Both the position numbers and the translations under genes were made by a program. The notes under the pieces are model-generated. The model ran no database searches. It was not told where the DNA came from and saw only the letters and a list, made by a program, of their open reading frames with translations. A stretch of 45,084 nt of DNA from Gemmatimonadota bacterium (GTDB lineage: Bacteria > Gemmatimonadota > Gemmatimonadetes > Gemmatimonadales > GWC2-71-9): positions 1 to 45,084 of the forward strand of contig QHTZ01000069.1 in NCBI GenBank assembly GCA_003221005.1. Reading direction: 5' to 3'. Shown piece by piece: positions 3,344-45,084 of this stretch. The stretch's first letter is position 1; every line of letters starts with the position of its first letter.

Positions 3344-3804
3344 GAGACCCGCTCGCCGTGGGACTGGGCGCGCTCGCCTGCGGCGCTGGCCTCGGCGGCG
3401 GCACGGTCGTCGCGGCGCTCGTCATGGTCCGGGTGCTCGAGCGCCACGTGACCGCCGTGAACTACCAGGAGAGCGCCGCCGATCCCGTGCTCGCCGGCAC
3501 GATCGCCGGCCTCGCCGTGGCCGCGACGTTCGGCTGGCGGCGCAGCCGGGCGATCGACAACGTGTGGCAGCGCGGCGTGATCGCGGTGATGTCGGCGGTC
3601 GGCGCCCTGCTGGTCGGCTTCATCGCCTGGCCGGTGGATCGGTTCCTGGGCATCGTGACCCTCGTGGTGTGGGGCGTGGCCGCGTTCGTGCTCGGCGGCG
3701 CCGGGAGCGCCTGGGCCACGAGAGGGAGCCGCGAAGATGCCATCCCAGAACCGGGGACGGGGGACGCGGGCCGGGGGACGGGGACGGGGACGGGGACCCG
3801 ATGA
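3340..3804 (+). CDS. Hypothetical membrane protein (about 4 TM segments)
   Basis: Coupled to lpdA by a GTGA overlap and to lipB by an ATGA overlap; several hydrophobic segments. Confidence 0.75.
   Translation: MRDPLAVGLGALACGAGLGGGTVVAALVMVRVLERHVTAVNYQESAADPVLAGTIAGLAVAATFGWRRSRAIDNVWQRGVIAVMSAVGALLVGFIAWPVDRFLGIVTLVVWGVAAFVLGGAGSAWATRGSREDAIPEPGTGDAGRGTGTGTGTR
3752..3797 (+). repeat. G-rich GGGACGG/GGACGG array encoding the C-terminal tail of the membrane protein
   Basis: GGGACGG GGGACGC GGGCCGG GGGACGG followed by GGACGG hexamers; encodes GTGDAGRGTGTGTGT. Confidence 0.8.
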
Positions 3805-4472
3805 GCGAGCGCGTGCTCGAGGTGCTGGATGCGGGGCGGGTCCCGTACCGGGAGGCGCTCGAGTGGCAGCGCAGCGTCGCGCAGGCCCGCATCGGTGCGC
3901 AGCTCGACCACGACGTGTTGCTGCTCCTCGAGCACCCAGCCGTGGTCACCGTGGGCCGCACGGCGCAGCCGCGCCATCTCCTCGACACCGCGGGGATCGA
4001 GGTGGTGGAGGTCGAGCGCGGCGGCGACGTGACCTACCACGGTCCCGGCCAGCTCGTCGGCTATCCGATCCTCGACCTCCGGCGGTACCGCCCGGACCTG
4101 CACTGGTATCTGCGCGCGCTCGAGCAGACGCTGATCGAGGCACTCGCGCGGCTGGGAATTCCCGCGCAGCCGCGGGCGGGCTACACAGGCGTCTGGGTGC
4201 GCGGACGCAAGATCGCGAGCATCGGCGTGCACGTGAAGCAATGGGTCACCTGGCACGGCTTCGCCCTCAACGTGAGCACCGACCTCGCGCAATTCGACCG
4301 GATTATCGCGTGCGGGATTCCGGGCGTGGAGATGACATCGGTTGAACGGGAAGGGGGACGGGGGAAGGGGGAAGGGGCGGTGTGGGAGCAGGCCACGGCT
4401 GCCGTGATTGCGGGCTTCGAGCAGGTGTTCGGCGTGACAGCTACAGCAGGTGAGCTCGCCAGTCCCCGGTGA
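3801..4472 (+). CDS. lipB: Lipoyl(octanoyl) transferase
   Basis: ATG 3801. Motifs LLLEHPAVVTVGR, RGGDVTYHGPGQLVGYPI, KIASIG, HGFALN, IIACG. Confidence 0.95.
   Translation: MSERVLEVLDAGRVPYREALEWQRSVAQARIGAQLDHDVLLLLEHPAVVTVGRTAQPRHLLDTAGIEVVEVERGGDVTYHGPGQLVGYPILDLRRYRPDLHWYLRALEQTLIEALARLGIPAQPRAGYTGVWVRGRKIASIGVHVKQWVTWHGFALNVSTDLAQFDRIIACGIPGVEMTSVEREGGRGKGEGAVWEQATAAVIAGFEQVFGVTATAGELASPR
4348..4375 (+). repeat. In-frame heptamer array (GGGAAGG/GGGACGG)x4 in LipB
   Basis: GGGAAGG GGGACGG GGGAAGG GGGAAGG, encoding REGGRGKGEG. Confidence 0.8.
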
Positions 4473-5128
4473 CGAAGTTCCTCGACGAGCTGCGGGAAAA
4501 GTCCGGCGCAACGCGGGAGCGCGTCCCTCCGGGTCAGGTCGTCACCGCCAAGTGGCCCGTCCTCCACTACGGCGACGTGCCGCGCGTGGACACGGCGACC
4601 TGGACCTTCGAGGTCTCCGGGCTCGTCGCCCGACCGTTCACCCTCACCTACGACGAGCTACTCGCGCTGCCGCGCCGGACGGTGCAATGCGACATGCATT
4701 GCGTCACGCGCTGGAGCCGGCTCGACAACACATTCGAGGGTGTACCGGTGCAGCAGCTGCTCGAGCGGGCGGGGGTGCAGCCGCAGGCCGCCTACTGTCT
4801 CGTGCTCGCCGAGCAGGGGTTCACGACCAATCTGCCGCTTGCGGACCTCGACCGGCCCGACAACCTCATCGCGCTCAAGTGGAACGGCGAGTCGCTGATG
4901 CCAGAGCACGGCTGGCCCGCTCGCCTGCTCGTGCCGCACCTCTATCTCTGGAAGAGCGCCAAGTGGGTGCGGGGGTTCGAGTTGTTGGAGGGGGACATGC
5001 CGGGCTTCTGGGAGCAGAACGGCTACCACATGCGCGGCGACCCGTGGCTGGAAGAGCGGTACGGCGGACGGGGGCTGACGCAACACGAGATAAACAAACT
5101 ACGAAACCGCAGTAAGAAAGACGTCTAG
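4469..5128 (+). CDS. Sulfite oxidase-like molybdopterin-dependent oxidoreductase (YuiH-like)
   Basis: Motifs PPGQ, DMHCVTRWS, EHGWPARLLVPHLYLWKSAKW, GFWEQNGYH. GTGA overlap with lipB. Confidence 0.9.
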   Translation: MTKFLDELREKSGATRERVPPGQVVTAKWPVLHYGDVPRVDTATWTFEVSGLVARPFTLTYDELLALPRRTVQCDMHCVTRWSRLDNTFEGVPVQQLLERAGVQPQAAYCLVLAEQGFTTNLPLADLDRPDNLIALKWNGESLMPEHGWPARLLVPHLYLWKSAKWVRGFELLEGDMPGFWEQNGYHMRGDPWLEERYGGRGLTQHEINKLRNRSKKDV

Positions 5129-5211
5129 GAAAGACGTCTAGGAAAGACGTCAAGAAAAACCGTCGAGAAGAGACGTACGGTGCTCCTCGACGGTTTTCCT
5201 CGACGCCTTAG
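5116..5211. repeat. 13-bp-period tandem array with an inverted arm (hairpin) between convergent genes
   Basis: GAAAGACGTCTAG x2, GAAAGACGTCAAG, AAAAACCGTCGAG, AAGAGACGT; inverted arm CTCGACGGTTTTC CTCGACGCCTTAG. Confidence 0.88.
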
Positions 5212-6724: not shown

Positions 6725-6816
6725 GAAATGCGTTTAGAAAAGTCGTTGAGCAGAGGCGTTGAGAAGAGAAGTGTTACATCCTCGCCACACGTCGACGTTG
6801 CCCCTCAACGCCGCTT
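6725..6816. repeat. Degenerate second copy of the 13-bp-period array with an inverted arm
   Basis: GAAATGCGTTTAG AAAAGTCGTTGAG CAGAGGCGTTGAG AAGAG ... GTCGACGTTGCCC CTCAACGCCGCTT. Confidence 0.65.
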
Positions 6817-8307: not shown

Positions 8308-9438
8308 ATGCGGACGACGGCGTCGTACGACTTGTTTCCGGACGCGCCGAGCGAGCGCGCCATCGCCCGCGCCCGCTGGCTCGCGCGCGAGGGGCGGATC
8401 GCCGACGCGGAGCAAGCGTACCGCGGCGTGCTCGCCACGCATCCCGATCTCAAGGCGGGCTGGGCAGAATGCTTCGAGCTGCTGCGGCTTCATCACCGCG
8501 CCGAGGACGCGCTGCGCCTCGCCGAGGGCGCGCTCGGCCACTTCGGGCTCACCGCCTTCCCCTTCACCCTCCAGGGCGCCGCGCTGATCGAGCTGGGACG
8601 CTATCGCGAAGCGTTCGCCGCGCTGGAGCAGGCGCTGGAGCGCGATCCCGACCTTGCCCTCGCCTGGCACGAGCTCGGGTACGCCGCGTATCGCATCGGC
8701 GACCCCAGTCGCGCGCTGCTGGCGCTCGACCGCGCGTTCGGACTGGAGCCGCACACGGAGACCCTGCGGCTGCGGGGCCGAATTCTCCGCGAGGGCGGCC
8801 GCTACCAGGCGGCGGAGGTGGCGTTCGAGGGCGCGGCGCAGGCGGCGGAGCACCGCGAGCAGCGCGAAGTGGCTGAGCACGAGATCCTCGCGACGCGGCG
8901 CTTCGCCTTCTACGCGCCGCGCCGGCCCGACGACCTGAGCGCCGCCGAGCGCTGGTTCGCCGAAACGGGGACCGTCGTGCTGGCGCCCGACGCGGGTCCG
9001 GTCCCGCCCAGTGACGATGCCCTGGTGCAGGCCTTCCTCGAGGTCTCCCACGACTCGGGGTGGCGCTTCGGGCAGGTGGTAGTCGCGGGTCCCGCGCTTC
9101 CGATCTGGAGCACGCTCGCCGAAGGATTGCGCGCCCCGCGTGTGGAATGGACGGCGCTCGATCCGGCGACCTGCCCGGTCGTCGTGGCGCCGCGCCCGCT
9201 GCCAGCGGATGCCGCCTGGCCCGTCCTCACTCGTGCGGTGGCGGAGCACGCTGCAGGTCTCGTCTTCGTGCTCGAGCACGCTGCGGACCCCTCGGCTGCG
9301 GTCGGCGCCGACGTGATCGGCGTGCTGGCTGACGGGGACGTGCGGCGCAGCCGCATGCCCAACACGGCCCACGCGCTCGCAGAGTCGCAGCATCCGGCGG
9401 TGCGCTACGCCGGCCGGCGGATGCGACCCGCCCCATGA
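8308..9438 (+). CDS. Tetratricopeptide repeat protein with an unknown C-terminal domain
   Basis: TPR patterns (GAALIELGRYREAFAALEQALERDPD; AWHELGYAAYRIGD). ATGA overlap with gdhA. Confidence 0.8.
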   Translation: MRTTASYDLFPDAPSERAIARARWLAREGRIADAEQAYRGVLATHPDLKAGWAECFELLRLHHRAEDALRLAEGALGHFGLTAFPFTLQGAALIELGRYREAFAALEQALERDPDLALAWHELGYAAYRIGDPSRALLALDRAFGLEPHTETLRLRGRILREGGRYQAAEVAFEGAAQAAEHREQREVAEHEILATRRFAFYAPRRPDDLSAAERWFAETGTVVLAPDAGPVPPSDDALVQAFLEVSHDSGWRFGQVVVAGPALPIWSTLAEGLRAPRVEWTALDPATCPVVVAPRPLPADAAWPVLTRAVAEHAAGLVFVLEHAADPSAAVGADVIGVLADGDVRRSRMPNTAHALAESQHPAVRYAGRRMRPAP

Positions 9439-10703
9439 CCGCCACCGCCCGTGCGCCGCGCGCGACGATGTCGGGAAAGTCCATCGCCGACAGCCAGTTC
9501 GACCGCGCCGCCAACCTGATCGACCTCGAGCCGTACATGCGTCGCATCCTGGGCTCTCCATTCCGGGAGGTCCAGGTCGAAGTGCCGGTGCGGATGGACG
9601 ACGGGCACATCGAGGTGTTCACCGGCTACCGCATCCAGCACAACGGCGCGCGGGGGCCGTGCAAGGGCGGCATCCGCTACCACCCCGACGCCGACCACGA
9701 CGAGGTGCTGGGCCTCGCGACGATCATGACGTGGAAGACCGCCCTGATGGACATCCCGTTCGGCGGGGCGAAGGGTGGCGTGACCGTGGATCCCAAGCGG
9801 CTCTCGAAGCTCGAGCTCGAGCGCCTCACCCGTCGCTTCACGCAGCGCATCTCCATCATGCTGGGACCGTACCGCGACGTCCCCGCGCCGGACGTCAATA
9901 CCAACGCGCAGGTGATGGCGTGGATCCTGGACGAGTACTCGAGCCGGCACGGCTACACGCCCGCCGCGGTCACCGGCAAGCCGGTCTCGCTGGGTGGGTC
10001 GCTGGGCCGGGAGGAAGCGACGGGACGTGGTGTGATGTACGTGATGATGGAATACGCACGGGACTTCGGGCTGCCGCTCCAGGGCAGCCGGGTGGTGATC
10101 CAGGGCTTCGGGAACGTGGGCGGCCACCTGGCGCGGCTGGTCGCCGCCGAGGCGGGCGCCAAGGTAATCGCCGTCTCCGACGTGGACGGCGGCGTCGTGA
10201 ACGAGAAGGGGCTCGACGTCCCCGCCCTGCTCGCCCACACCGCCGGCCGCGGCCGCGTATCCGAATGGAAGGGCGGCACCGCTATCACGAACGAGCAGCT
10301 GTGGACGCTCCCCTGCGACTGGCTCGTCCCCGCCGCGCTGGGCGGCGTGATCACCAAGGAGCACAACGCACGCACGCTCGCCTGCAAGGTCGTGGTGGAG
10401 GGCGCCAACGAGCCGACGACGCCCACCGCCGACCTGATCCTGGAAGAGCGCGGGATCCCCGTGATCCCGGACTTTCTGGCGAACGCGGGCGGCGTGACGG
10501 TGAGCTACTATGAGTGGGCCCAGAACCTCCAGCAGTACCGCTGGACCCACGAACAGGTGAACCGCGAGCTGAAGGCGACGATCACCAAGGGCTACGTCGC
10601 GGTGCGCGATCTCGCCAAGCAGCGAGGCGTGACATTCCGGACAGCGGCGTACGCGATCGCATTACAACGGGTCGCGGAGGCGGAGAGGCTTCGGGGCAAT
10701 TAG
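9435..10703 (+). CDS. gdhA: Glu/Leu/Phe/Val dehydrogenase, most likely glutamate dehydrogenase
   Basis: Motifs GPCKGGIRY, PFGGAKGG, DVPAPD, VTGKP, ATGRG, QGFGNVG, EGAN, NAGGVTVSYYEW. Confidence 0.9.
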   Translation: MTATARAPRATMSGKSIADSQFDRAANLIDLEPYMRRILGSPFREVQVEVPVRMDDGHIEVFTGYRIQHNGARGPCKGGIRYHPDADHDEVLGLATIMTWKTALMDIPFGGAKGGVTVDPKRLSKLELERLTRRFTQRISIMLGPYRDVPAPDVNTNAQVMAWILDEYSSRHGYTPAAVTGKPVSLGGSLGREEATGRGVMYVMMEYARDFGLPLQGSRVVIQGFGNVGGHLARLVAAEAGAKVIAVSDVDGGVVNEKGLDVPALLAHTAGRGRVSEWKGGTAITNEQLWTLPCDWLVPAALGGVITKEHNARTLACKVVVEGANEPTTPTADLILEERGIPVIPDFLANAGGVTVSYYEWAQNLQQYRWTHEQVNRELKATITKGYVAVRDLAKQRGVTFRTAAYAIALQRVAEAERLRGN

Positions 10704-10758
10704 GCGGTCGGGTAAGGCGGCGGACGGAGGAGACGGCGGTCGAAAACGGCGGCGGTCA
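10703..10758 (+). repeat. Left arm: 16-bp-period GGCGGTC array flanking the four-helix-bundle gene
   Basis: GGCGGTCGGGTAAGGC GGCGGACGGAGGAGAC GGCGGTCGAAAACGGC GGCGGTCA. Confidence 0.85.
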
Positions 10759-11139
10759 TGCGAGCGAATCGTCAACGGACGCGCGTCCACCCTTGACGGC
10801 ATCGTAGAGACGCCACGTCAGCCGGCTGGCGTGAATCCGTAGCGGATTGAGCTCCACCCACTGCTCCTCCGATAGCAACTCGAGCTTCCGGCACAGCTGC
10901 AGAGTGTAGGACAGTTCGGACAGCGAGCCGATCGCGATGTCTAAGTAGCGCCGGAACTCACGGCGGCCATGCTTTGCGGATCCTTCCGCGATGTTGGCCG
11001 CCGCGCTGAACGCGGCCCGCCGCGCCTGCGACGTCAGTCCATAAAGCTCGGTGCGAGGAAAGCGCTCGGTGGCCCGATAGACCGCGACTACGAGAGCGTC
11101 GCAAGCATGCCACGCCCGAAATCGTTCGTACGGCTGCAT
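10756..11139 (-). CDS. Four-helix-bundle protein (23S rRNA intervening-sequence protein / TIGR02436-like family)
   Basis: 127 aa from ATG 11139: MQPYERFRAW...FPRTELYGLTSQARRAAFSAAANIAEG...EFRRYLDIAIGSLSEL, matching the family signature FPxxExYGLxSQxRRAxxSxxxNIAEG. Confidence 0.92.
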   Translation of the reverse strand: MQPYERFRAWHACDALVVAVYRATERFPRTELYGLTSQARRAAFSAAANIAEGSAKHGRREFRRYLDIAIGSLSELSYTLQLCRKLELLSEEQWVELNPLRIHASRLTWRLYDAVKGGRASVDDSLA

Positions 11140-11203
11140 AAGCGGGACATTGTGTCGGGCGCCGAGCGTGAACGGTATCGGATTCGTGCGTAGCGTACCA
11201 CCC

Positions 11204-11282
11204 GACCGCCTGACCGCCGCACTACTCGTCCGCCGCTTGAACTCACCGCCGTCGTTCCCGACCGCCGCCTCATCCGACCGCC
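11204..11282 (-). repeat. Right arm: inverted GACCGCC array flanking the four-helix-bundle gene
   Basis: GACCGCC-like cores at 11204, 11212, 11228, 11244, 11260 and 11276. The reverse complement of 11245-11282 matches 10703-10740 at 31 of 38 positions (counted by hand). Confidence 0.85.
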
Positions 11283-11287
11283 GTCTC

Positions 11288-12394
11288 TCATGGCGGCATA
11301 CCCGGCCGCGAATACAGCGCGCGATACGGATCCTCATCCGGCTGCGTGAACAGACGCACCTCGATCGCCCGGATGGTCTCCGCAATGTCGGCGCCGTTCT
11401 GCACGTAGACCTCGTCGAACAAGTTGAGGTTCATCCGGTAGAGCCGTTGCGCGATGACGACCGCGTTGTTGAGCGAGGCCTGAGCGAACCAGCGCCAGTC
11501 GTACGTCTCGAGCGACTGGCCCACCACGCCCGTCAGCTGGGCCCGCGCCCACCCGAACAGCGTGGCGCGCGCCCGCTCGAGCGCCGCCCCCGTGAGATCG
11601 CCCGCGTACGCGGAATCGAGCCGGCGCGCGAGCTCGGCATAGAACACGTCGAGGGTGCGCTCGTCGCGCCAGCGCGCCGCCGCCCGCTTGGCGTCCGCCG
11701 AGTCGCCGCGCGAGCGGAAGAATGCCGCGGCGCCATGGTAGCCCACGAAGCTCGCGAAGCTCTCGTTGAACGGCGTCTGGCTCTTCACGTACAGCGTGTT
11801 GTGCGTCAGCTCGTGGATAACGGTGGCGACGAGCTCCATCGTGTCCCGCGTCAGGGCTGTGGACAGCAACGGGTCGCTGAAGTAGCCGAGCGTCGAGAAC
11901 GCGGGGGCGGGCCGGAGATAGGTGTCGTATCCCTGGCGCTCGAGGTCGGCCGCGGTCGCGCGCGCCCGCGCGAAGTCGAAGAACCCCTTGTACGGCACCA
12001 CCCCGACGATCGGGTAGCTCCAGGTGTACTCGCGGAGCCGGTCGCGCCGGCTCGCCTGGAGCACCAGCACGAGCGTGTCCCGCCCCACGTCTGCATACGT
12101 CGTGTAGGTGTCGCCCGCCGAGAGGTGCAGCGAGTCCGCCGCATAGGCCCGGGCCGCGAGCACCAGCGCGAGGCGCTGCCGCAGCGGGGCGGGCGTTCGA
12201 GCGTCCGCCACGAGCTTCCGAATCGGATGCCGCTTGAGGAGGATCCGCGCCTCCTCGCACGCGGCGCGGGCGAGGTAGCGCACCTCGGCGCTCACGAGTA
12301 ACGCGAGGACTAGGACGGTCGGCACGCCCACCAGCACCCAGGCTGCGAGTCGACGCGCCACCCGCCCCCAGTTCGGGGGCCGGCGCTCCCTCAC
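11288..12394 (-). CDS. Putative zinc aminopeptidase, membrane-anchored or secreted
   Basis: GTG start overlapping the upstream stop (GTGA); N-terminal TM; WSYPIVGVVPYKGFF, AFSTLGYFSDP, HELTH followed by FNESFA (HExxH...E). Confidence 0.85.
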   Translation of the reverse strand: MRERRPPNWGRVARRLAAWVLVGVPTVLVLALLVSAEVRYLARAACEEARILLKRHPIRKLVADARTPAPLRQRLALVLAARAYAADSLHLSAGDTYTTYADVGRDTLVLVLQASRRDRLREYTWSYPIVGVVPYKGFFDFARARATAADLERQGYDTYLRPAPAFSTLGYFSDPLLSTALTRDTMELVATVIHELTHNTLYVKSQTPFNESFASFVGYHGAAAFFRSRGDSADAKRAAARWRDERTLDVFYAELARRLDSAYAGDLTGAALERARATLFGWARAQLTGVVGQSLETYDWRWFAQASLNNAVVIAQRLYRMNLNLFDEVYVQNGADIAETIRAIEVRLFTQPDEDPYRALYSRPGMPP

Positions 12395-13296
12395 GGGGTC
12401 CATCGCACCCCGAAGCGGTGCCGGGCCCCGGCCGGCTGATCGAACGACTGATAGGCGTAATCGAGGTGCAGCCGCCCGAGCTCGAGGCCCGCGCCAAGCG
12501 TGACGGGCGAGCCGTTCCCGGGCTGCGCACCGCTCCCGCCCCCAGTCGCGCCCACGCGCCCGACGATGCCCACGCCGCGCGCGACCACGCCGCCCTCCGC
12601 GCCCGCCACGAAGCGCGCATGCTGGCCGGCCGCCCCGCTCACGGGCCACTGGCCCTCGAACGTCGTGAGGAATCGCGCCGTGCCCTGGGGATCGACGTAG
12701 TTCATGGTGAACCCGACGCGCGCGCGCCGGGCGAGATGCGCACCGCCCCCGAAGTCGCCCCCGAGATTCTGCACGCTCGCCCCGAAAGCCATGATGTCGA
12801 ATACGGCGATCGCCACCCCCGCGTCGCCCGCCCAGGCGTCCACTGGCGCCCCGCTGATCGCTTCCCGTACGTACTTGAGCGACGTCCCGAGCGCGACGAG
12901 CCCGTGGCGGAACACGAGCGCCGTGAGTCCCAGCACGTCCGTGGGCTGGTACGTGGGCCCAGCGGGATAGTCGAGGGCCTGGGCCGCGACCCCCCAATCG
13001 AATCGCCCCACGCGCACCGCGAGGGCGGCCGACGAGAGCGTCGTCCCCGCGAGGTACGCCTCGTACGAGCCCTCCGCGGCGAAGCGGTGGATCGTAGCGA
13101 TCCCGGCGGGGTTCGTGAACACGGCGCCGGCGTCCCCGACGAGCGCAGCCCCGGCGCCGCCGAGAGACGCCGAGCGTGCCGATCCCGGGAGGTCCGCGAC
13201 GCCTTGGGCGGTCAGGCGGACGGGCGGTCCGGCAGTCAACAGGCCGACAACGGCTCCAACCGCCAGACCGCCTGACCGCCCGACCGCCGGCTTCAC
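12391..13296 (-). CDS. Outer-membrane beta-barrel, PorV/FadL-like
   Basis: N-terminal motif ARSASLGGAGAALVGDAGAVFTNPAGI; alternating beta-strands; C-terminal LDYAY...HRFGVRW. Confidence 0.7.
   Translation of the reverse strand: MKPAVGRSGGLAVGAVVGLLTAGPPVRLTAQGVADLPGSARSASLGGAGAALVGDAGAVFTNPAGIATIHRFAAEGSYEAYLAGTTLSSAALAVRVGRFDWGVAAQALDYPAGPTYQPTDVLGLTALVFRHGLVALGTSLKYVREAISGAPVDAWAGDAGVAIAVFDIMAFGASVQNLGGDFGGGAHLARRARVGFTMNYVDPQGTARFLTTFEGQWPVSGAAGQHARFVAGAEGGVVARGVGIVGRVGATGGGSGAQPGNGSPVTLGAGLELGRLHLDYAYQSFDQPAGARHRFGVRWTP
13207..13288. repeat. 8-bp-period inverted GGCGGTC/GACCGCC hairpin inside the signal-peptide coding region
   Basis: GGCGGTCA GGCGGACG GGCGGTCC GGCAGTCA, a loop, then AACCGCC A GACCGCC T GACCGCC C GACCGCC. 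Confidence 0.9.
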
Positions 13297-25839: not shown

Positions 25840-26778
25840 ATGCGCAAGCGTGCGGAGCGCCGCTGGACGGTGATGTTGGTGCCGCATGGCTCGGGCTCCT
25901 CCCGCGCCGTCGAAGTGTCGCACACTCTGATGAAGAGCCTCATGGGGATCGGGGGCGTGCTCGTGCTCCTCGTCGTCGTGCTCGGCGTGACGGCGATCGT
26001 GCGCGGCGTGAACATCACGCGCAACCGCGCGCTCGAGCGCGAGAACCGCGTGCTCGGCGACGAGGTCCAACGGATGCGCGAGCGCCTCGTCGGGCTGCGT
26101 GACACCATCAGCTCGATCGGCCAGCGCGAGCAGGAGCTGCGTCTCCTCGCGGGGCTGAACCCGATCGACCCCGGCGTCCAGCAGGGCGGCATCGGCGGTC
26201 CGTCGGGCACCTGGTTGGAGCGCGACACGCTCGCGGCACTCGGCGCGGACGGGCAGCATGCGCTCGCCGCGCGCATGGACATGGACGGGCTGATCCGCCG
26301 CGCCAACATCCTGGTCCGCTCGGTGAGCGAGGCCTATGACTCGCTGCACAGCCACCAGGCGCGCTTCGCCGCCACGCCGTCGATCATGCCCACCAAGGGA
26401 TGGCTCTCGAGCGCCTTCGCGGCCGAGCGCGTGCACCCCATCCTGCACCTGGCCCGCCCGCACGAGGGCATCGACGTCTCCGCACCGATGGGCGCCGAGA
26501 TCGAGGCACCTGCCTCGGGGATCGTCGCCGACGTCAGGTGGGAAGAGGGTTACGGCAACCTGCTCACGATCGACCACGGCTACGGCCTGGTGACCCGCTA
26601 CGCACACTGCTCCAAGATCCTCGTGGCGCGCGGGCAGCGGGTGAAGCGCGGGCAGAAGATCGCGCTCGTCGGCTCGACCGGATTGTCCACCGGTCCTCAC
26701 GTTCACTACGAGGTGTGGGTGAACGGCAAGCCGGTGGATCCGAAGAAGTTTGTGCTGCCGGATGCGATCGTAGACTAG
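25840..26778 (+). CDS. M23 family metallo-endopeptidase with N-terminal TM and coiled coil
   Basis: TPSIMPTKGWLSSAF, HEGID, YAH, STGPHVHYEV. Confidence 0.93.
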   Translation: MRKRAERRWTVMLVPHGSGSSRAVEVSHTLMKSLMGIGGVLVLLVVVLGVTAIVRGVNITRNRALERENRVLGDEVQRMRERLVGLRDTISSIGQREQELRLLAGLNPIDPGVQQGGIGGPSGTWLERDTLAALGADGQHALAARMDMDGLIRRANILVRSVSEAYDSLHSHQARFAATPSIMPTKGWLSSAFAAERVHPILHLARPHEGIDVSAPMGAEIEAPASGIVADVRWEEGYGNLLTIDHGYGLVTRYAHCSKILVARGQRVKRGQKIALVGSTGLSTGPHVHYEVWVNGKPVDPKKFVLPDAIVD

Positions 26779-26870
26779 GCGGCAACAGGCGGCAGAGGAC
26801 GGCAAAGGGCGGCAAGCGCAACTGCGCTTGTCGCCCTTCTCATTGCCGCCCTATGCCGCCCGTGCCGCCT
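26778..26870. repeat. 10-bp-period inverted GGCGGCA/TGCCGCC hairpin between convergent genes
   Basis: GGCGGCAACA GGCGGCAGAG GACGGCAAAG GGCGGCAAGC GCA, then TGCGCTTGTCGCCC ... TTGCCGCC CTATGCCGCC CGTGCCGCCT. Confidence 0.88.
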
Positions 26871-42762: not shown

Positions 42763-44294
<1,532 letters not shown>

Positions 44295-44297
44295 GCT

Positions 44298-45084
44298 CTA
44301 CCCTTGCAGCGCCTCCGCGCCGCCGACGATCTCCGCGATCTCCTGCGTGATCTGCGCCTGCCGCGCCCGGTTGTAGGTGCGCCGCAACAGGTCGAGCATG
44401 TCCCCTGCGTTGTCGGTGGCGTTCTTCATCGCCGTGCGGCGCGCGCCATGCTCGGCGGCCGCGGTCTCGACCAGCGCGCGGAACATTTGATTCTCGACGT
44501 ACAGCGGGAGCAGCCGCTCGAGGATCGCGTCTGCGGAGGGCTTGAGAATGTAGTTGGCCGCCTGACCGCCCGACCGCCGGTCCGCCCGGGGCGGGGAGAC
44601 GGGGAGGATACGCTGCACGGTCGGCGGCGTCGAGATCGCGCTGTTGAACTTCGCGAACACGACTTCGACCGCGTCGAGCGCCCCGGTCTCGAATGCCCGC
44701 ATCAGCGGGGCCACCAGCTCCGCGGCGTGGGCCGCCGTCGGCCGGTCCCCAATGTCCGCGCGTTGCGAGGCGACGGAACGGCGGGTGAACCGAAAGAACC
44801 CGATCCCCTTTTTCCCGACGAGATGAAGGTCCACGGCCGTCCCCTGGGCCTCGAGCTCCTGGAGGCGACGTCGGGCCTCGCGGATGAGGTTTGCGTTGAA
44901 CGCCCCGCACAGCCCGCGGTTCGACGTGATCAGCACGAGCGCGACCTTCTTGACGCCGGCCGCGCCCGGTTGCCGCAGCAGCGCGAACCGCTCGGCCAGG
45001 GCCGGGGAATAGAGGTCCCCGATCACCTCCGCGAGCGCCGCCGCGTACGGGCGCGCCGCCACCACCCGATCCTGCGCGCGCTTC
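44298..45084 (-). CDS. atpG: ATP synthase F1 gamma subunit (5'-truncated by window edge)
   Basis: ITSNRGLCGAFN, EHGARRTAMKNATDNA, YNRARQAQITQEIAEIVGGA. Confidence 0.97.
   Translation of the reverse strand, partial: KRAQDRVVAARPYAAALAEVIGDLYSPALAERFALLRQPGAAGVKKVALVLITSNRGLCGAFNANLIREARRRLQELEAQGTAVDLHLVGKKGIGFFRFTRRSVASQRADIGDRPTAAHAAELVAPLMRAFETGALDAVEVVFAKFNSAISTPPTVQRILPVSPPRADRRSGGQAANYILKPSADAILERLLPLYVENQMFRALVETAAAEHGARRTAMKNATDNAGDMLDLLRRTYNRARQAQITQEIAEIVGGAEALQG
44556..44586 (+). repeat. 8-bp-period GACCGCC array in frame inside an AtpG loop
   Basis: GGCCGCC T GACCGCC C GACCGCC G GTCCGCC, encoding RADRRSGGQAA on the minus strand. 44558-44580 is identical to 13268-13290. Confidence 0.8.

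Follow-up and report, generated by a model that had tools for sequence, protein, structure and literature searches.

Why should a protein family named for the 23S rRNA intervening sequence (IVS), whose founding paper reportedly dates from 1993, be encoded between two protein-coding genes and inside a pair of inverted tandem repeats? The locus that raises this question lies in the window, the 45,084-nucleotide Gemmatimonadota contig analyzed here (we refer to its assembly as the window genome), and fills the whole gap, 10703 to 11287, that separates two convergent genes: gdhA, encoding a Glu/Leu/Phe/Val dehydrogenase (9435 to 10703, plus strand), and a putative aminopeptidase gene (PF10023, 290 bits; 11288 to 12400, minus strand, with its true start further upstream). 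The PF05635/TIGR02436 gene itself (10756 to 11139, minus strand) comprises an ORF of 127 codons (10759 to 11139) and a stop codon (10756 to 10758). Its left arm (10703 to 10757; the 3′ arm in the sense of the gene) repeats a 16-nt unit with GGCGGTC or GGCGGAC cores 3.4 times; its first nucleotide is also the third base of the gdhA TAG (10701 to 10703), and its other end runs into the PF05635 stop codon. The right, or 5′, arm (11200 to 11287) carries GACCGCC cores with periods of 16 and 32, and its end (11285 to 11287) is followed directly by the aminopeptidase stop codon (11288 to 11290). Tandem Repeats Finder reported period 16 in both arms, at 10703 to 10757 (3.4 copies) and 11245 to 11285 (2.6 copies), and positions 10703 to 10740 pair as an inverted repeat with 11245 to 11282 over 38 nt (31/38, 82%); longer registers extend over 42 nt (83%) and over 60 nt (72%). 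A preliminary description of this DNA had reported the ORF, the inverted arms, the 16-bp period and the 31 of 38 matches; every detail was confirmed, the right arm proved longer, and repeat and fold analysis bore out the position of the gene in the loop. Contigs from four soil DNA runs also confirm the element; a single 971-nt contig spans it whole, in one contig the right arm is shorter, and none carries an empty-site allele of the locus. An Rfam search of the locus region (C52:9340-12621) gave no match to rRNA or any other family.

The protein is a clear member of the family to which it had been provisionally assigned. PF05635, its sole Pfam match, scores 96.3 bits (cut-off, 33.8) and TIGR02436 scores 90.9 bits (cut-off, 24). 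An AlphaFold2 model with four long helices (pLDDT, 93.1) matches 2GSC in Foldseek at a TM score of 0.88 (rmsd, 0.9 Å; 39 to 40% identity), and the same entry, XCC0516 of Xanthomonas campestris, is the closest solved structure by sequence (E = 6.6e-20); its function is equally not known. PDB entries 2GSC and 2RLD contain five chains each. To our knowledge, no catalytic activity or catalytic residues have been assigned to PF05635, and despite the solved structures we know of no function for the family outside diversity-generating retroelements (DGRs). A relative has been described as a pentamer (PMC4990558, available text), and the published family motif, GxxRxxxSxxxNxxE with the core R-x3-S-x3-N-x2-E (PMC3936711), is present here as RRAAFSAAANIAEG, with Q replacing the leading G. 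Among 39 aligned sequences there is no change at N49 and hardly any at R40, S45 and E52. The protein is basic (pI 9.3), as is most of the family (median pI, 9.4; above 8 in 83 of 107 proteins). It is under purifying selection: dN/dS is 0.03 against the G009 orthologue, a pair for which dS is saturated, and 0.02 to 0.17 across 8 pairs, with dS not computable for 2 further pairs. The noncoding parts of the element are constrained as well, since in each of two pairs the flanks exceed third codon positions in conservation (78% and 75% versus 55%; 69% and 73% versus 49%).

The fold is shared with Avd, the accessory variability determinant of DGRs, within one superfamily (Foldseek TM scores of about 0.7 to 4DWL and to DGR ribonucleoprotein entries). 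Avd, the one characterized relative, is also basic, has a quaternary form like that of the five-chain 2GSC and 2RLD, and sits in an RNA-protein complex, as judged by the titles of 8UB7 and related entries. We nevertheless rejected an assignment of the window protein to the DGR Avd proteins: with the window genome 94% complete, RVT_1 detected no reverse transcriptase anywhere in it (0 matches). In addition, the Avd equivalog NF033474 scores 18.7 bits, below its cut-off of 80, identity to Avd is 11%, and the neighbors are gdhA and the aminopeptidase gene. PHROGs returned a weak Avd match alone (20.6 bits), and the PADLOC defense-system library gave no match to the protein.

Comparison of the gdhA-aminopeptidase junction among relatives shows how the locus came to be occupied. 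The junction measures 2 nt in G016, 15 nt in G004 and 25 nt in G002, where a single unit-like word, GACGGCGGTCGG, is present. In G017 it holds a 78-nt hairpin with no gene; in G003 it is 246 nt long, with homologous period-16 arms and an interior that resembles a remnant of the 5′ end of the gene. G009 carries the same element (82% identical), with an arm that is perfect at 60/60 positions, and G001 carries a PF05635 gene that is only 58% identical, lies in the opposite orientation and has other arms. The element is thus an insertion, its site being empty in three relatives and occupied by a decayed copy in one and by a different, inverted copy in another. Stable synteny across the phylum had been named in the preliminary description as an outcome contrary to its reading; since the gene is not stably syntenic, the junction being empty, decayed or replaced in relatives, that objection falls away. 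No target-site duplication was seen in comparisons of filled with empty sites, and no transposase domain was found in the element (Pfam); an IS element or MITE was rejected on these grounds. PF05635 paralogues within a genome are all at most 72% identical to each other, so there is no sign that gene-carrying elements were copied recently.

Inverted arms around PF05635 genes are the rule and not the exception. We scored the inverted match between 200-nt flanks under one scheme throughout, with 600 random segments from the window genome as the control; the window locus scores 24.5. Among the pooled Gemmatimonadales loci, 89/107 score at least 20 and 98/107 at least 15, compared with 0/600 and 23/600 of the random segments. 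In the window genome and 24 relatives, 32 of 35 loci lie above all 30 of their shuffles (L031 and L032 marginally; L001, L015 and L016 are the misses), and of a further 72 loci from Gemmatimonadales, 65 reach 15 or more. Within the window genome, where the flanks of the paralogues bear directly on the preliminary reading, arms are visible by eye in 6/6 and clearly above the shuffle null in 5/6. The pattern extends to plasmids of Nostocales, Pseudanabaena, Stanieria and Azospirillum, on which 9 of 10 PF05635 loci have inverted tandem-repeat arms, mostly heptamers. Arm sequence varies among loci yet follows protein similarity: protein identity correlates with the number of common arm 6-mers (Spearman, 0.42; reached by 0/500 Mantel permutations), and the correlation is 0.40 after removal of 129 same-context pairs. 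The arms, in other words, travel with the gene.

Hairpins of the same kind also occur with no gene inside them. The window genome contains 101 short-loop inverted tandem arrays, or 64 as counted by a general hairpin finder; periods of 7 (92 arms) and 8 (52 arms) are found, and 10, 14 and 16 also occur. Nine GGCGGT-type hairpins with no gene were found, including a GGCGGTC/GGCGGAC hairpin with a 36-nt loop in the window itself (13207 to 13289), in support of the earlier suggestion that the locus is a repeat element with cargo. A second gene-less hairpin in the window, built of GGAACGC heptamers (1863 to 1936), lies between the E2 and E3 genes, and its unit matches the arms of the PF05635 paralogue on contig C66. 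Comparison with sister genomes shows that it, too, was inserted; at the same point G001 has a hairpin of another family, and the empty site holds a single unit-like word, TGAACGG. In G025, gene-less hairpins are homologous to the complex, nontandem arms of a PF05635 locus. The commonest hairpin families of the window genome lack an exactly matching gene in the assembly: the 10 AATGCGG hairpins have a unit one base off that of the C66 arms, and the AAGGACGG (7 hairpins) and AAACGGG (6 hairpins) families have no matching gene arms there. By common 7-mers, 67 of the 101 hairpins matched arms of the same genome, against a control mean of 59 (49 of 200 draws reached at least 67); own-genome arms thus matched the hairpins no better than did arms of other genomes. 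A search for decayed PF05635 sequence in gene-less hairpins, with an HMM built from 107 proteins and a six-frame translation, returned only the six known genes.

Across genomes, the hairpins co-occur with the PF05635 family and with the matching subfamily. Six PF05635-free genomes, among them G004 (same genus as the window genome) and G022 (a congener of G020), yielded 0 hairpins in 1,014,080 bases, and six PF05635-bearing genomes yielded 19 in 1,022,203 bases; these counts come from samples of 63 to 328 kb per genome in related and hence nonindependent genomes, the bearing ones being better assembled on average and the G003 contigs having been picked in the knowledge that they held PF05635 genes, and the 63 kb sampled from G013 being too little to judge by. 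At the level of single families, GGCGGT ×3 arrays (at least 20 per genome) and a close homologue of the window protein are both present in 6 genomes and both missing from 23; the exceptions are G013, with the gene and no arrays, and G007, with arrays and no close gene. GGAAYGY ×3 arrays occur in 5/5 genomes that have a close homologue of the C66 protein and number at most one in 22 genomes; four genomes (G015, G001, G003 and G006) have the arrays, and no gene was found in them. The same pattern read backwards, used as a control, had 0 matches in all genomes.

These counts bear on two other accounts of the repeats. One is that the arms are functionless products of local slippage and inverted duplication, associated with the gene by chance or as a side effect of GC-rich, low-complexity sequence. 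Arm copy number does vary, as in the metagenome contig with the shorter right arm, and single unit-like words stand at the “empty” sites in G002 and between E2 and E3. Against this stand the arm scores, which no random segment equalled in the range where 89 of 107 loci fall, the recurrence of identical units across genomes and at no fewer than 10 dispersed loci, and the silence of the backwards GGAAYGY control. A slippage origin is strongly disfavored, and we regard it as very improbable. The other account is that the hairpins are independent of the protein, being host terminators or MITE-like repeats, and that PF05635 cassettes merely prefer to land in hairpin loops, the protein never contacting the repeats. 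It would explain why gene-less copies are far more numerous than gene-carrying ones, why the gene-less ones sit straight after stop codons as terminators do and why loop sequences differ inside a single hairpin family. It does not predict that arm sequence should follow protein similarity even across genomic contexts, since a cassette that lands in any hairpin available would not be expected to show such tracking, or that array families should go with the matching protein subfamily. The absence of hairpins wherever PF05635 is absent in the sampled genomes also weighs against it, although a gene that needed a hairpin would look alike in this respect. On balance we consider this account unlikely.

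Could the arms instead work at the level of RNA? In design, the window element is homologous to the ORF-bearing IVS of 23S rRNA in Leptospira, Coxiella and others: both are about 0.4 to 0.6 kb long, carry an ORF of the identical family and have terminal inverted repeats that form a long stem enclosing it, and the IVS is likewise regarded as selfish and horizontally acquired. The likeness that the preliminary description had drawn to an IVS is real, in that the Coxiella IVS has a 28-bp terminal stem and, ahead of its PF05635 ORF, heptamers (GACAGAT ×3 to 4, in variable copy number) (PMC4990558, in the part available). The differences are equally plain. The IVS sits in a 23S rRNA helix and the window element between protein-coding genes; unlike the IVS, the latter has arms made wholly of tandem repeats and many gene-less copies; and the window protein is under purifying selection, whereas the Coxiella ORF is decaying and apparently untranslated.

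By analogy with the IVS, the arms might pair on an RNA read through from the aminopeptidase gene, a double-strand-specific RNase then cutting the stem so as to release or stabilize the PF05635 mRNA and split it off the host message. The arms are indeed paired over about 80 nt in the minimum-free-energy fold of the minus-strand RNA, for which the z-score of the whole region is only −3.1. The stems, of at least about 30 bp, are comparable to the 28-bp Coxiella stem at which, beside tandem heptamers, RNase III cuts out the homologous IVS with its ORF (PMC4990558, text seen in part); an effect on transcript stability has also been proposed for the cyanobacterial short tandemly repeated repetitive (STRR) hairpins (PMC2670836, likewise in part). 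However, PF00636 and TIGR02191 detected no RNase III in any of the 31 related genomes, the window genome among them, and a third model, PF14622, gave no match in the window genome. Excision by RNase III is therefore unlikely here, and the release of the ORF RNA by this enzyme, as put forward in the preliminary description, is not upheld. Nor does the sense strand have a significant excess of G:U over A:C mismatches in the arms (150 versus 131; P = 0.28), as selection on an RNA stem would predict. The lack of RNase III from all 31 Gemmatimonadales searched may, as a separate matter, bear on the tolerance of long perfect stems.

The inner 5′ region, between the right arm and the start codon (11140 to 11199, minus strand), points the same way. 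In the 55 loci where a start codon opens the match, a position-specific motif is enriched within the 5′ arm, with its peak at −40 to −36, and the TGGTAC (about −62) and CGATAC (about −40) of the window fit the motif of their subfamily; we infer that the region is a putative promoter or operator. Among loci with enough upstream sequence, some relatives also have a terminator-like hairpin followed by a T-run inside the 5′ arm. From this combination of motif and terminator-like hairpin within the arms, the gene is probably transcribed from inside them and would not rely on an operon transcript. A scan of 10500 to 11500 for a consensus sigma-70 promoter and an intrinsic terminator gave no match. 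We found no RNA runs that contain the locus. With a promoter-like motif inside the 5′ arm, the gene's own mRNA would be without that arm. Of the proposed pairing on an operon transcript, then, the predicted fold stands; the strand bias is missing and the motif inside the arm speaks against it. IVS-like processing would also leave the absence of hairpins in PF05635-free sister genomes unexplained, and we think it improbable. The data agree better with the alternative offered in the preliminary description, recognition of the arms as ends for insertion, than with RNA release, and the interpretation given there is, as a whole, partly supported.

The reading we prefer, to which we give somewhat better than even chances, is that 10703 to 11287 belongs to a family of hairpin elements and is a copy with a gene; it would be a protein-repeat element inherited as a unit, comparable to RAYT/REPIN and the rRNA IVS. 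Such an element consists of two inverted arms of about 30 to 90 nt, made of short tandem repeats, that enclose a promoter- or operator-like region and a PF05635 gene. Arms and gene are gained and lost as one block, at intergenic sites immediately 3′ of stop codons, and the gene-carrying form coexists with many gene-less hairpins of identical repeat units. The basic protein probably forms a pentameric ring, as in its solved relative, and it may recognize the units repeated in its own arms and in matching gene-less hairpins, either single stranded or as a stem. By analogy with RAYT/REPIN, the protein could maintain, spread or control the repeats, and the long stem might allow transcribed DNA to tolerate the insertions. 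In this organism the route would not be canonical cleavage by RNase III.

The RAYT/REPIN parallel is close in organization. There, too, each family has one diverged gene copy with inverted repeats of its own family around it, dozens of gene-less hairpins are scattered between genes, and repeat families track the presence of the matching gene (PMC3116915, in the part available, together with general background); at the window locus, similarly, the gene is bracketed by inverted copies of a repeat, and other copies of that repeat are dispersed with no gene. The two differ in their parts: RAYT, the REP-associated tyrosine transposase, is a Y1 HUH transposase, whereas the window protein is a 127-residue four-helix bundle, and a REPIN is one conserved palindrome, whereas arms of the window type are tandem arrays of 7- to 16-nt units. 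Hairpin-ended, single-strand transposition is a known mode of the Y1/IS200-type family. This leads to a further account, in which an unrelated trans-acting enzyme, such as a Y1/IS200-type transposase or host recombination and repair, moves the hairpins, and PF05635 is a passenger with some other role. The window genome encodes two Y1_Tnp (PF01797) proteins, and PF05635 has no known catalytic residues. But the Y1 gene on C27 is flanked by quite different, REP-like direct repeats of its own (about 120 nt) and the one on C66 by no tandem-repeat arms, and a RAYT as the driver was rejected for these reasons. Moreover, a passenger would not be expected to retain one diverged copy per arm family, or array counts to follow its own subfamily. 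We hold a trans-acting enzyme to be a poor candidate, about as improbable as IVS-like processing.

The co-inherited protein-repeat element may have counterparts well outside this phylum. STRR of filamentous cyanobacteria are likewise short tandem units, of 7 nt, that form intergenic hairpins; the window locus has tandem units of period 16 that form a hairpin, and its genome, from Gemmatimonadota and not from cyanobacteria, has periods of 8, 10, 14 and 16 besides 7. The function of STRR is described as still not known in the available text of PMC2670836. STRR are described without a protein partner, whereas the Gemmatimonadota hairpins come with PF05635 and the arms of PF05635 genes on Nostocales plasmids are STRR-like heptamer arrays. 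A search of the open-access literature and bioRxiv found nothing that links the PF05635 family to tandem-repeat hairpins outside rRNA. One tentative possibility, which we consider appreciably less likely than the element itself, is that tandem-repeat hairpins of several phyla (STRR, the Gemmatimonadales hairpins and IVS stems) have their missing protein partner in PF05635. Each protein subfamily would then read its own repeat unit, perhaps as a pentameric ring spanning about four to five tandem units, and the hairpin population would depend on the protein for its spread or upkeep.

Our results show gene and hairpins to be a single unit, inherited, gained and lost jointly, in at least three phyla. 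This brings two puzzles, a protein family named for the IVS and the heptamer hairpins of cyanobacterial STRR, together into one testable question; the hypothesis that the matching protein recognizes its repeat unit sequence specifically is open to simple binding assays. It also suggests that “four helix bundle protein” genes wedged in operons may be insertions rather than functional members, as in the plasmid examples between nrdB and nrdA and between cas6 and cas4; 18 such genes have been recorded inside cas loci (PMC3936711). If PF05635 does turn out to be the missing partner, these protein-repeat elements, mobile or symbiotic, would constitute a new class that works without any known transposase.

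The 585-nt gap (10703-11287) between gdhA (plus strand, 9435-10703, with its TAG stop codon at 10701-10703) and a putative aminopeptidase gene on the minus strand (ending at 11288-11290 and matched by profile PF10023) contains, exactly as the preliminary description had it, a 127-aa ORF between inverted period-16 arms that match at 31 of 38 positions. The ORF is on the minus strand (10759-11139, stop codon at 10756-10758). The left arm (10703-10757) is a tandem array of 3.4 copies, and the right arm (11200-11287) includes an array of 2.6 copies at 11245-11285; the 38-nt inverted match (82%) pairs 10703-10740 with 11245-11282, and longer registers cover 42 nt (83%) and 60 nt (72%). A near-identical locus is present in soil-metagenome contigs from several studies, one of which, 971 nt long, holds the entire element. 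In one low-depth soil-metagenome contig, 72 nt of the right arm (window 11211-11284) are skipped, which suggests that right-arm copy number varies within the population.

The proposed family assignment was upheld by profile search, since the ORF scored 96.3 bits against PF05635 (cut-off, 33.8) and 90.9 bits against TIGR02436 (cut-off, 24); it did not reach the Avd equivalog NF033474 (18.7 bits; cut-off, 80). AlphaFold2 predicts a four-helix bundle (pLDDT 93.1) that superimposes best on XCC0516 (2GSC; TM 0.88, 39 to 40% identity), followed by BT_0352 (2RLD), with Avd (4DWL) and diversity-generating retroelement (DGR) ribonucleoprotein entries ranking lower (TM about 0.7, 11% identity); a sequence search of structures agreed with this ranking. 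Because a search of the source genome turned up no reverse transcriptase, the element is not a DGR. The protein is basic (pI 9.3; median of 107 proteins, 9.4), and dN/dS was 0.02 to 0.17 in eight close pairs, with dS saturated in several and not computable in two further pairs.

The source assembly (G000; 2.79 Mb in 141 contigs, 69% G+C, 94% complete) encodes six PF05635 genes, and a custom HMM run against its six-frame translation found no extra fragments. As the preliminary description would lead one to expect, inverted arms surround all six, each with a different repeat unit: the GGCGGTC type at period 16 in the window, GGCGGTAAGG on contig C135, GGGGACGAG on C118, GGAACGC on C66, an AATGTCC type on C39, and a weak TAGACGC pair on C132, the sole locus of this genome that failed to beat shuffled sequence. 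The C39 paralogue (positions 1-833), whose arms are AT rich, is encoded on the strand opposite to the rRNA and follows immediately after the 23S 3′ end and 5S rRNA, adjoining the rRNA operon and not within it. Because paralogues are at most 72% identical and their arms are unlike, the genome appears to carry one old copy per family, with no recent burst.

Among 31 related Gemmatimonadales genomes, spanning genus, family, and order, 25 have PF05635 matches (1 to 13 each), and at 32 of 35 loci the inverted flank match outscored all 30 shuffles, in two cases marginally (the misses were L001, L015, and L016). When the window protein was searched against species-representative genomes, 79 of the best 80 loci carried the label of a Gemmatimonadales, Gemmatimonadota, or Gemmatimonadetes metagenome-assembled genome and one the label Acidimicrobiia; of the 72 with at least 150 nt on each side, 65 scored at least 15. 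Could such arms arise by chance? The window locus scored 24.5, and none of 600 random source-genome segments of the same geometry reached 20. When the loci were pooled and mismatches penalized slightly less, 98 of 107 scored at least 15 and 89 at least 20, against 23 and 0 of 600 random segments. As an account of the arms, chance is barely credible.

The association extends to other phyla. A tblastn search of plasmids gave 18 matching records (17 from cyanobacteria, 1 from Azospirillum), and inverted tandem-repeat arms, mainly of heptamers (e.g., GTCAGAA, GGGTGTA, GGGAGTA, AGCTAAA, and GGCAGAA), closely surround the gene in 9 of the 10 loci inspected; in the exception, on a plasmid of Nostoc PCC 7120, a single array borders the gene, whose other side is occupied by an ISL3 transposase gene. 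At three cyanobacterial plasmid loci (L272, L274, and L268), heptamer-armed PF05635 genes sit inside gene pairs (cas6|cas4; nrdB|nrdA, on the opposite strand; and two toxin-secretion transporter genes), where they look like operon insertions rather than operon members. The rRNA-borne intervening sequence (IVS) of Coxiella resembles the window element in this respect, being described as having a 28-bp terminal inverted-repeat stem and, ahead of its ORF, three or four GACAGAT heptamers in tandem, in variable number (PMC4990558).

Orthologous gdhA-aminopeptidase junctions differ widely. The junction is empty in G016 (2 nt), G004 (15 nt), and the closest relative, G002 (25 nt, with a single GACGGCGGTCGG word kept; flanking proteins 83 to 88% identical). 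G017 has a 78-nt gene-less hairpin of other units, G015 a 475-nt unrelated segment without arms, and G001 a PF05635 gene that is 58% identical, reversed in orientation, and flanked by GGCGGGAAG arms. G009 carries the same element as the window (82% identical) with a perfect 60/60 arm. In G003 (246 nt), intact period-16 arms homologous to those of the window enclose a loop of about 130 nt, an apparent remnant of the 5′ end of a PF05635 gene; by its sequence, this locus looks like an intermediate between the gene-carrying and gene-less forms. In G005 and G006 the two flanking genes are not adjacent. Given these differing states, the gene is not stably syntenic, and the site has been occupied at least twice. 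Similarly, a 74-nt gene-less hairpin of GGAACGC heptamers lies between the E2 stop and the E3 start (1863-1936) and is absent from the orthologous site in five congeners (G002, G003, G005, G006, and G004); in G001 the exact insertion point is occupied by a GGCGGTC-type hairpin. Both sites are intact and empty in G004.

Gene-less hairpins are abundant in the source genome, with 101 short-loop inverted tandem-array pairs, or 64 hairpins (22.9 per Mb) by a general hairpin finder. Arms have a median of 31 nt (about four units) and loops a median of 23 nt, and periods of 7 (92 arms) and 8 (52 arms) predominate, with 14, 10, and 16 also found. Unit families occupy up to 10 dispersed loci each, their loops and surroundings varying. 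Nine gene-less hairpins, including one at window 13207-13289, share the window element's GGCGGT-type core, and in G025, where arms are complex and non-tandem, plain homology connects gene-less hairpins with the arms of one PF05635 locus.

Several other arrays in the window deserve mention. Mutually inverted arrays at 862-881 (GGGACGG, 2.9 copies) and 1133-1162 (CCCGTCC, 4.3 copies) lie within the E2 acyltransferase ORF, in apparent linkers on either side of its small subunit-binding domain; these coding linkers may have taken up hairpin-type repeats. G-rich arrays at 3751-3797 and 4348-4377 (GGGGACG and GGGAAGG types) are in direct rather than inverted orientation, as single arms flanking a short ORF (about 3802-4345). 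Other intergenic hairpins or half-hairpins, at 5116-5210, 6730-6810, 26777-26869, 44240-44295, and 44556-44590, have units of period 13 (GAAAGACGTCTAG), 10 (AGGCGGCAAA), 7 (AGACGTC), and 8 (GACCGCC). On contig C27 (17600-18420), a Y1_Tnp (RAYT/IS200-like) gene has on each side a copy of a structured REP-like element, about 120 nt long and in direct orientation; this repeat system is distinct from the tandem-repeat hairpins.

In partial samples of related, hence non-independent, genomes, hairpins scoring at least 20 numbered 0 in 1,014,080 bases of six PF05635-free genomes (G004, G010, G011, G012, G014, and G022; one run of N left out) and 19 in 1,022,203 bases of six PF05635-bearing ones (G001, G003, G013, G020, G023, and G025), the latter being on average better assembled and including G003 contigs picked with prior knowledge of their PF05635 genes. 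The 63 kb sampled from G013 had no hairpin. G004 is a congener of G000, G001, and G003, and G022 of G020; fragmented assemblies such as G000, G002, and G009 are nonetheless array rich. Whole-genome pattern counts agree with this at the level of subfamilies: at least 20 triple GGCGGT arrays coincide with a close window-protein homologue in six genomes, the gene occurs alone in G013, the arrays alone in G007, and neither in 23. Each of the five genomes that encode a close C66 homologue has triple GGAAYGY arrays (5 to 48), as do four further genomes in which no gene was found (10 to 24 each); the remaining 22 have at most one, and the motif read backwards gave none anywhere. Mobilization by a third-party enzyme we consider improbable.

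Arms also vary with the protein. Across 98 loci, protein identity correlated with shared arm 6-mers (Spearman 0.42; 0 of 500 Mantel permutations as high), and still did so (0.40) once 129 pairs with similar outer flanks were removed. Cores in the window-protein subfamily (49 to 74% identical) are nearly always GGCGGT[A/C]-type or close kin, at periods 8, 10, and 16, and other subfamilies have other cores. Because shared descent gives related sequences common features, this correlation by itself shows co-inheritance and not recognition. Non-coding flanks were better conserved than third codon positions in two pairs (78% and 75% versus 55%; 69% and 73% versus 49%), a hint that these non-coding parts are constrained. 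From co-variation, co-occurrence, and arm constraint, we infer that the protein may bind its own repeat units. Alternatively, PF05635 genes might target hairpin loops, without any binding of the repeats; the abundance of gene-less hairpins favors this idea and the arm-protein correlation opposes it, and we think it unlikely.

The preliminary description, noting that rRNA IVSs are excised by RNase III, also envisaged that the arms could pair on an operon transcript and release the ORF as a separate RNA, and the predicted minus-strand RNA fold does include about 80 nt of arm-arm pairing. However, RNase III was found in none of the 31 genomes (PF00636 and TIGR02191), nor in the source genome with PF14622, although control genomes matched as expected and several of the 31 are 99 to 100% complete in 3 to 10 contigs; nor did arm mismatches prefer G:U on the sense strand (150 versus 131; P = 0.28). 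Moreover, the stretch from the 5′ arm to the start codon is enriched in the motifs TGGTTA, TTGAT, TGGTAC, and ATGAT. Of 53 occurrences, 22 fall at the peak, 36 to 40 nt ahead of the start, and a second cluster lies some 20 nt upstream of that; in the window, TGGTAC and CGATAC stand at these positions. We read this region as a putative internal promoter or operator, in which case the gene's own mRNA would exclude the 5′ arm. A short hairpin and T-run directly follow the 5′ arm in some relatives; in L070, L072, L073, and L082 the last arm unit pairs with a short complement ahead of the T-run, an arrangement resembling an intrinsic terminator that would separate the arm from the promoter-like motif. 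Taken together, the failure to find RNase III, the lack of G:U preference, and the internal-promoter reading make RNase III excision from an operon transcript unlikely here, and RNA processing in general is an unlikely explanation of the element.

Our search of open-access papers and bioRxiv preprints found no link between the PF05635 family and tandem-repeat hairpins outside rRNA. The papers it yielded concern rRNA IVSs, the Avd proteins of DGRs, and rRNA insertions in CPR bacteria; 18 PF05635 genes are reported within cas loci (PMC3936711), and STRR hairpins were described with function unknown (PMC2670836). The best-supported interpretation is a protein-repeat element inherited as one unit, in which a PF05635 gene and its internal control region lie between tandem-repeat arms. 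Its nearest counterpart in ancestry is the ORF-bearing rRNA IVS and, in behavior, as far as sequence reveals the element, the RAYT/REPIN system. Such a unit would insert as a block immediately after stop codons, would then decay into gene-less hairpins or multiply in that form, and would persist solely where the PF05635 gene family persists.
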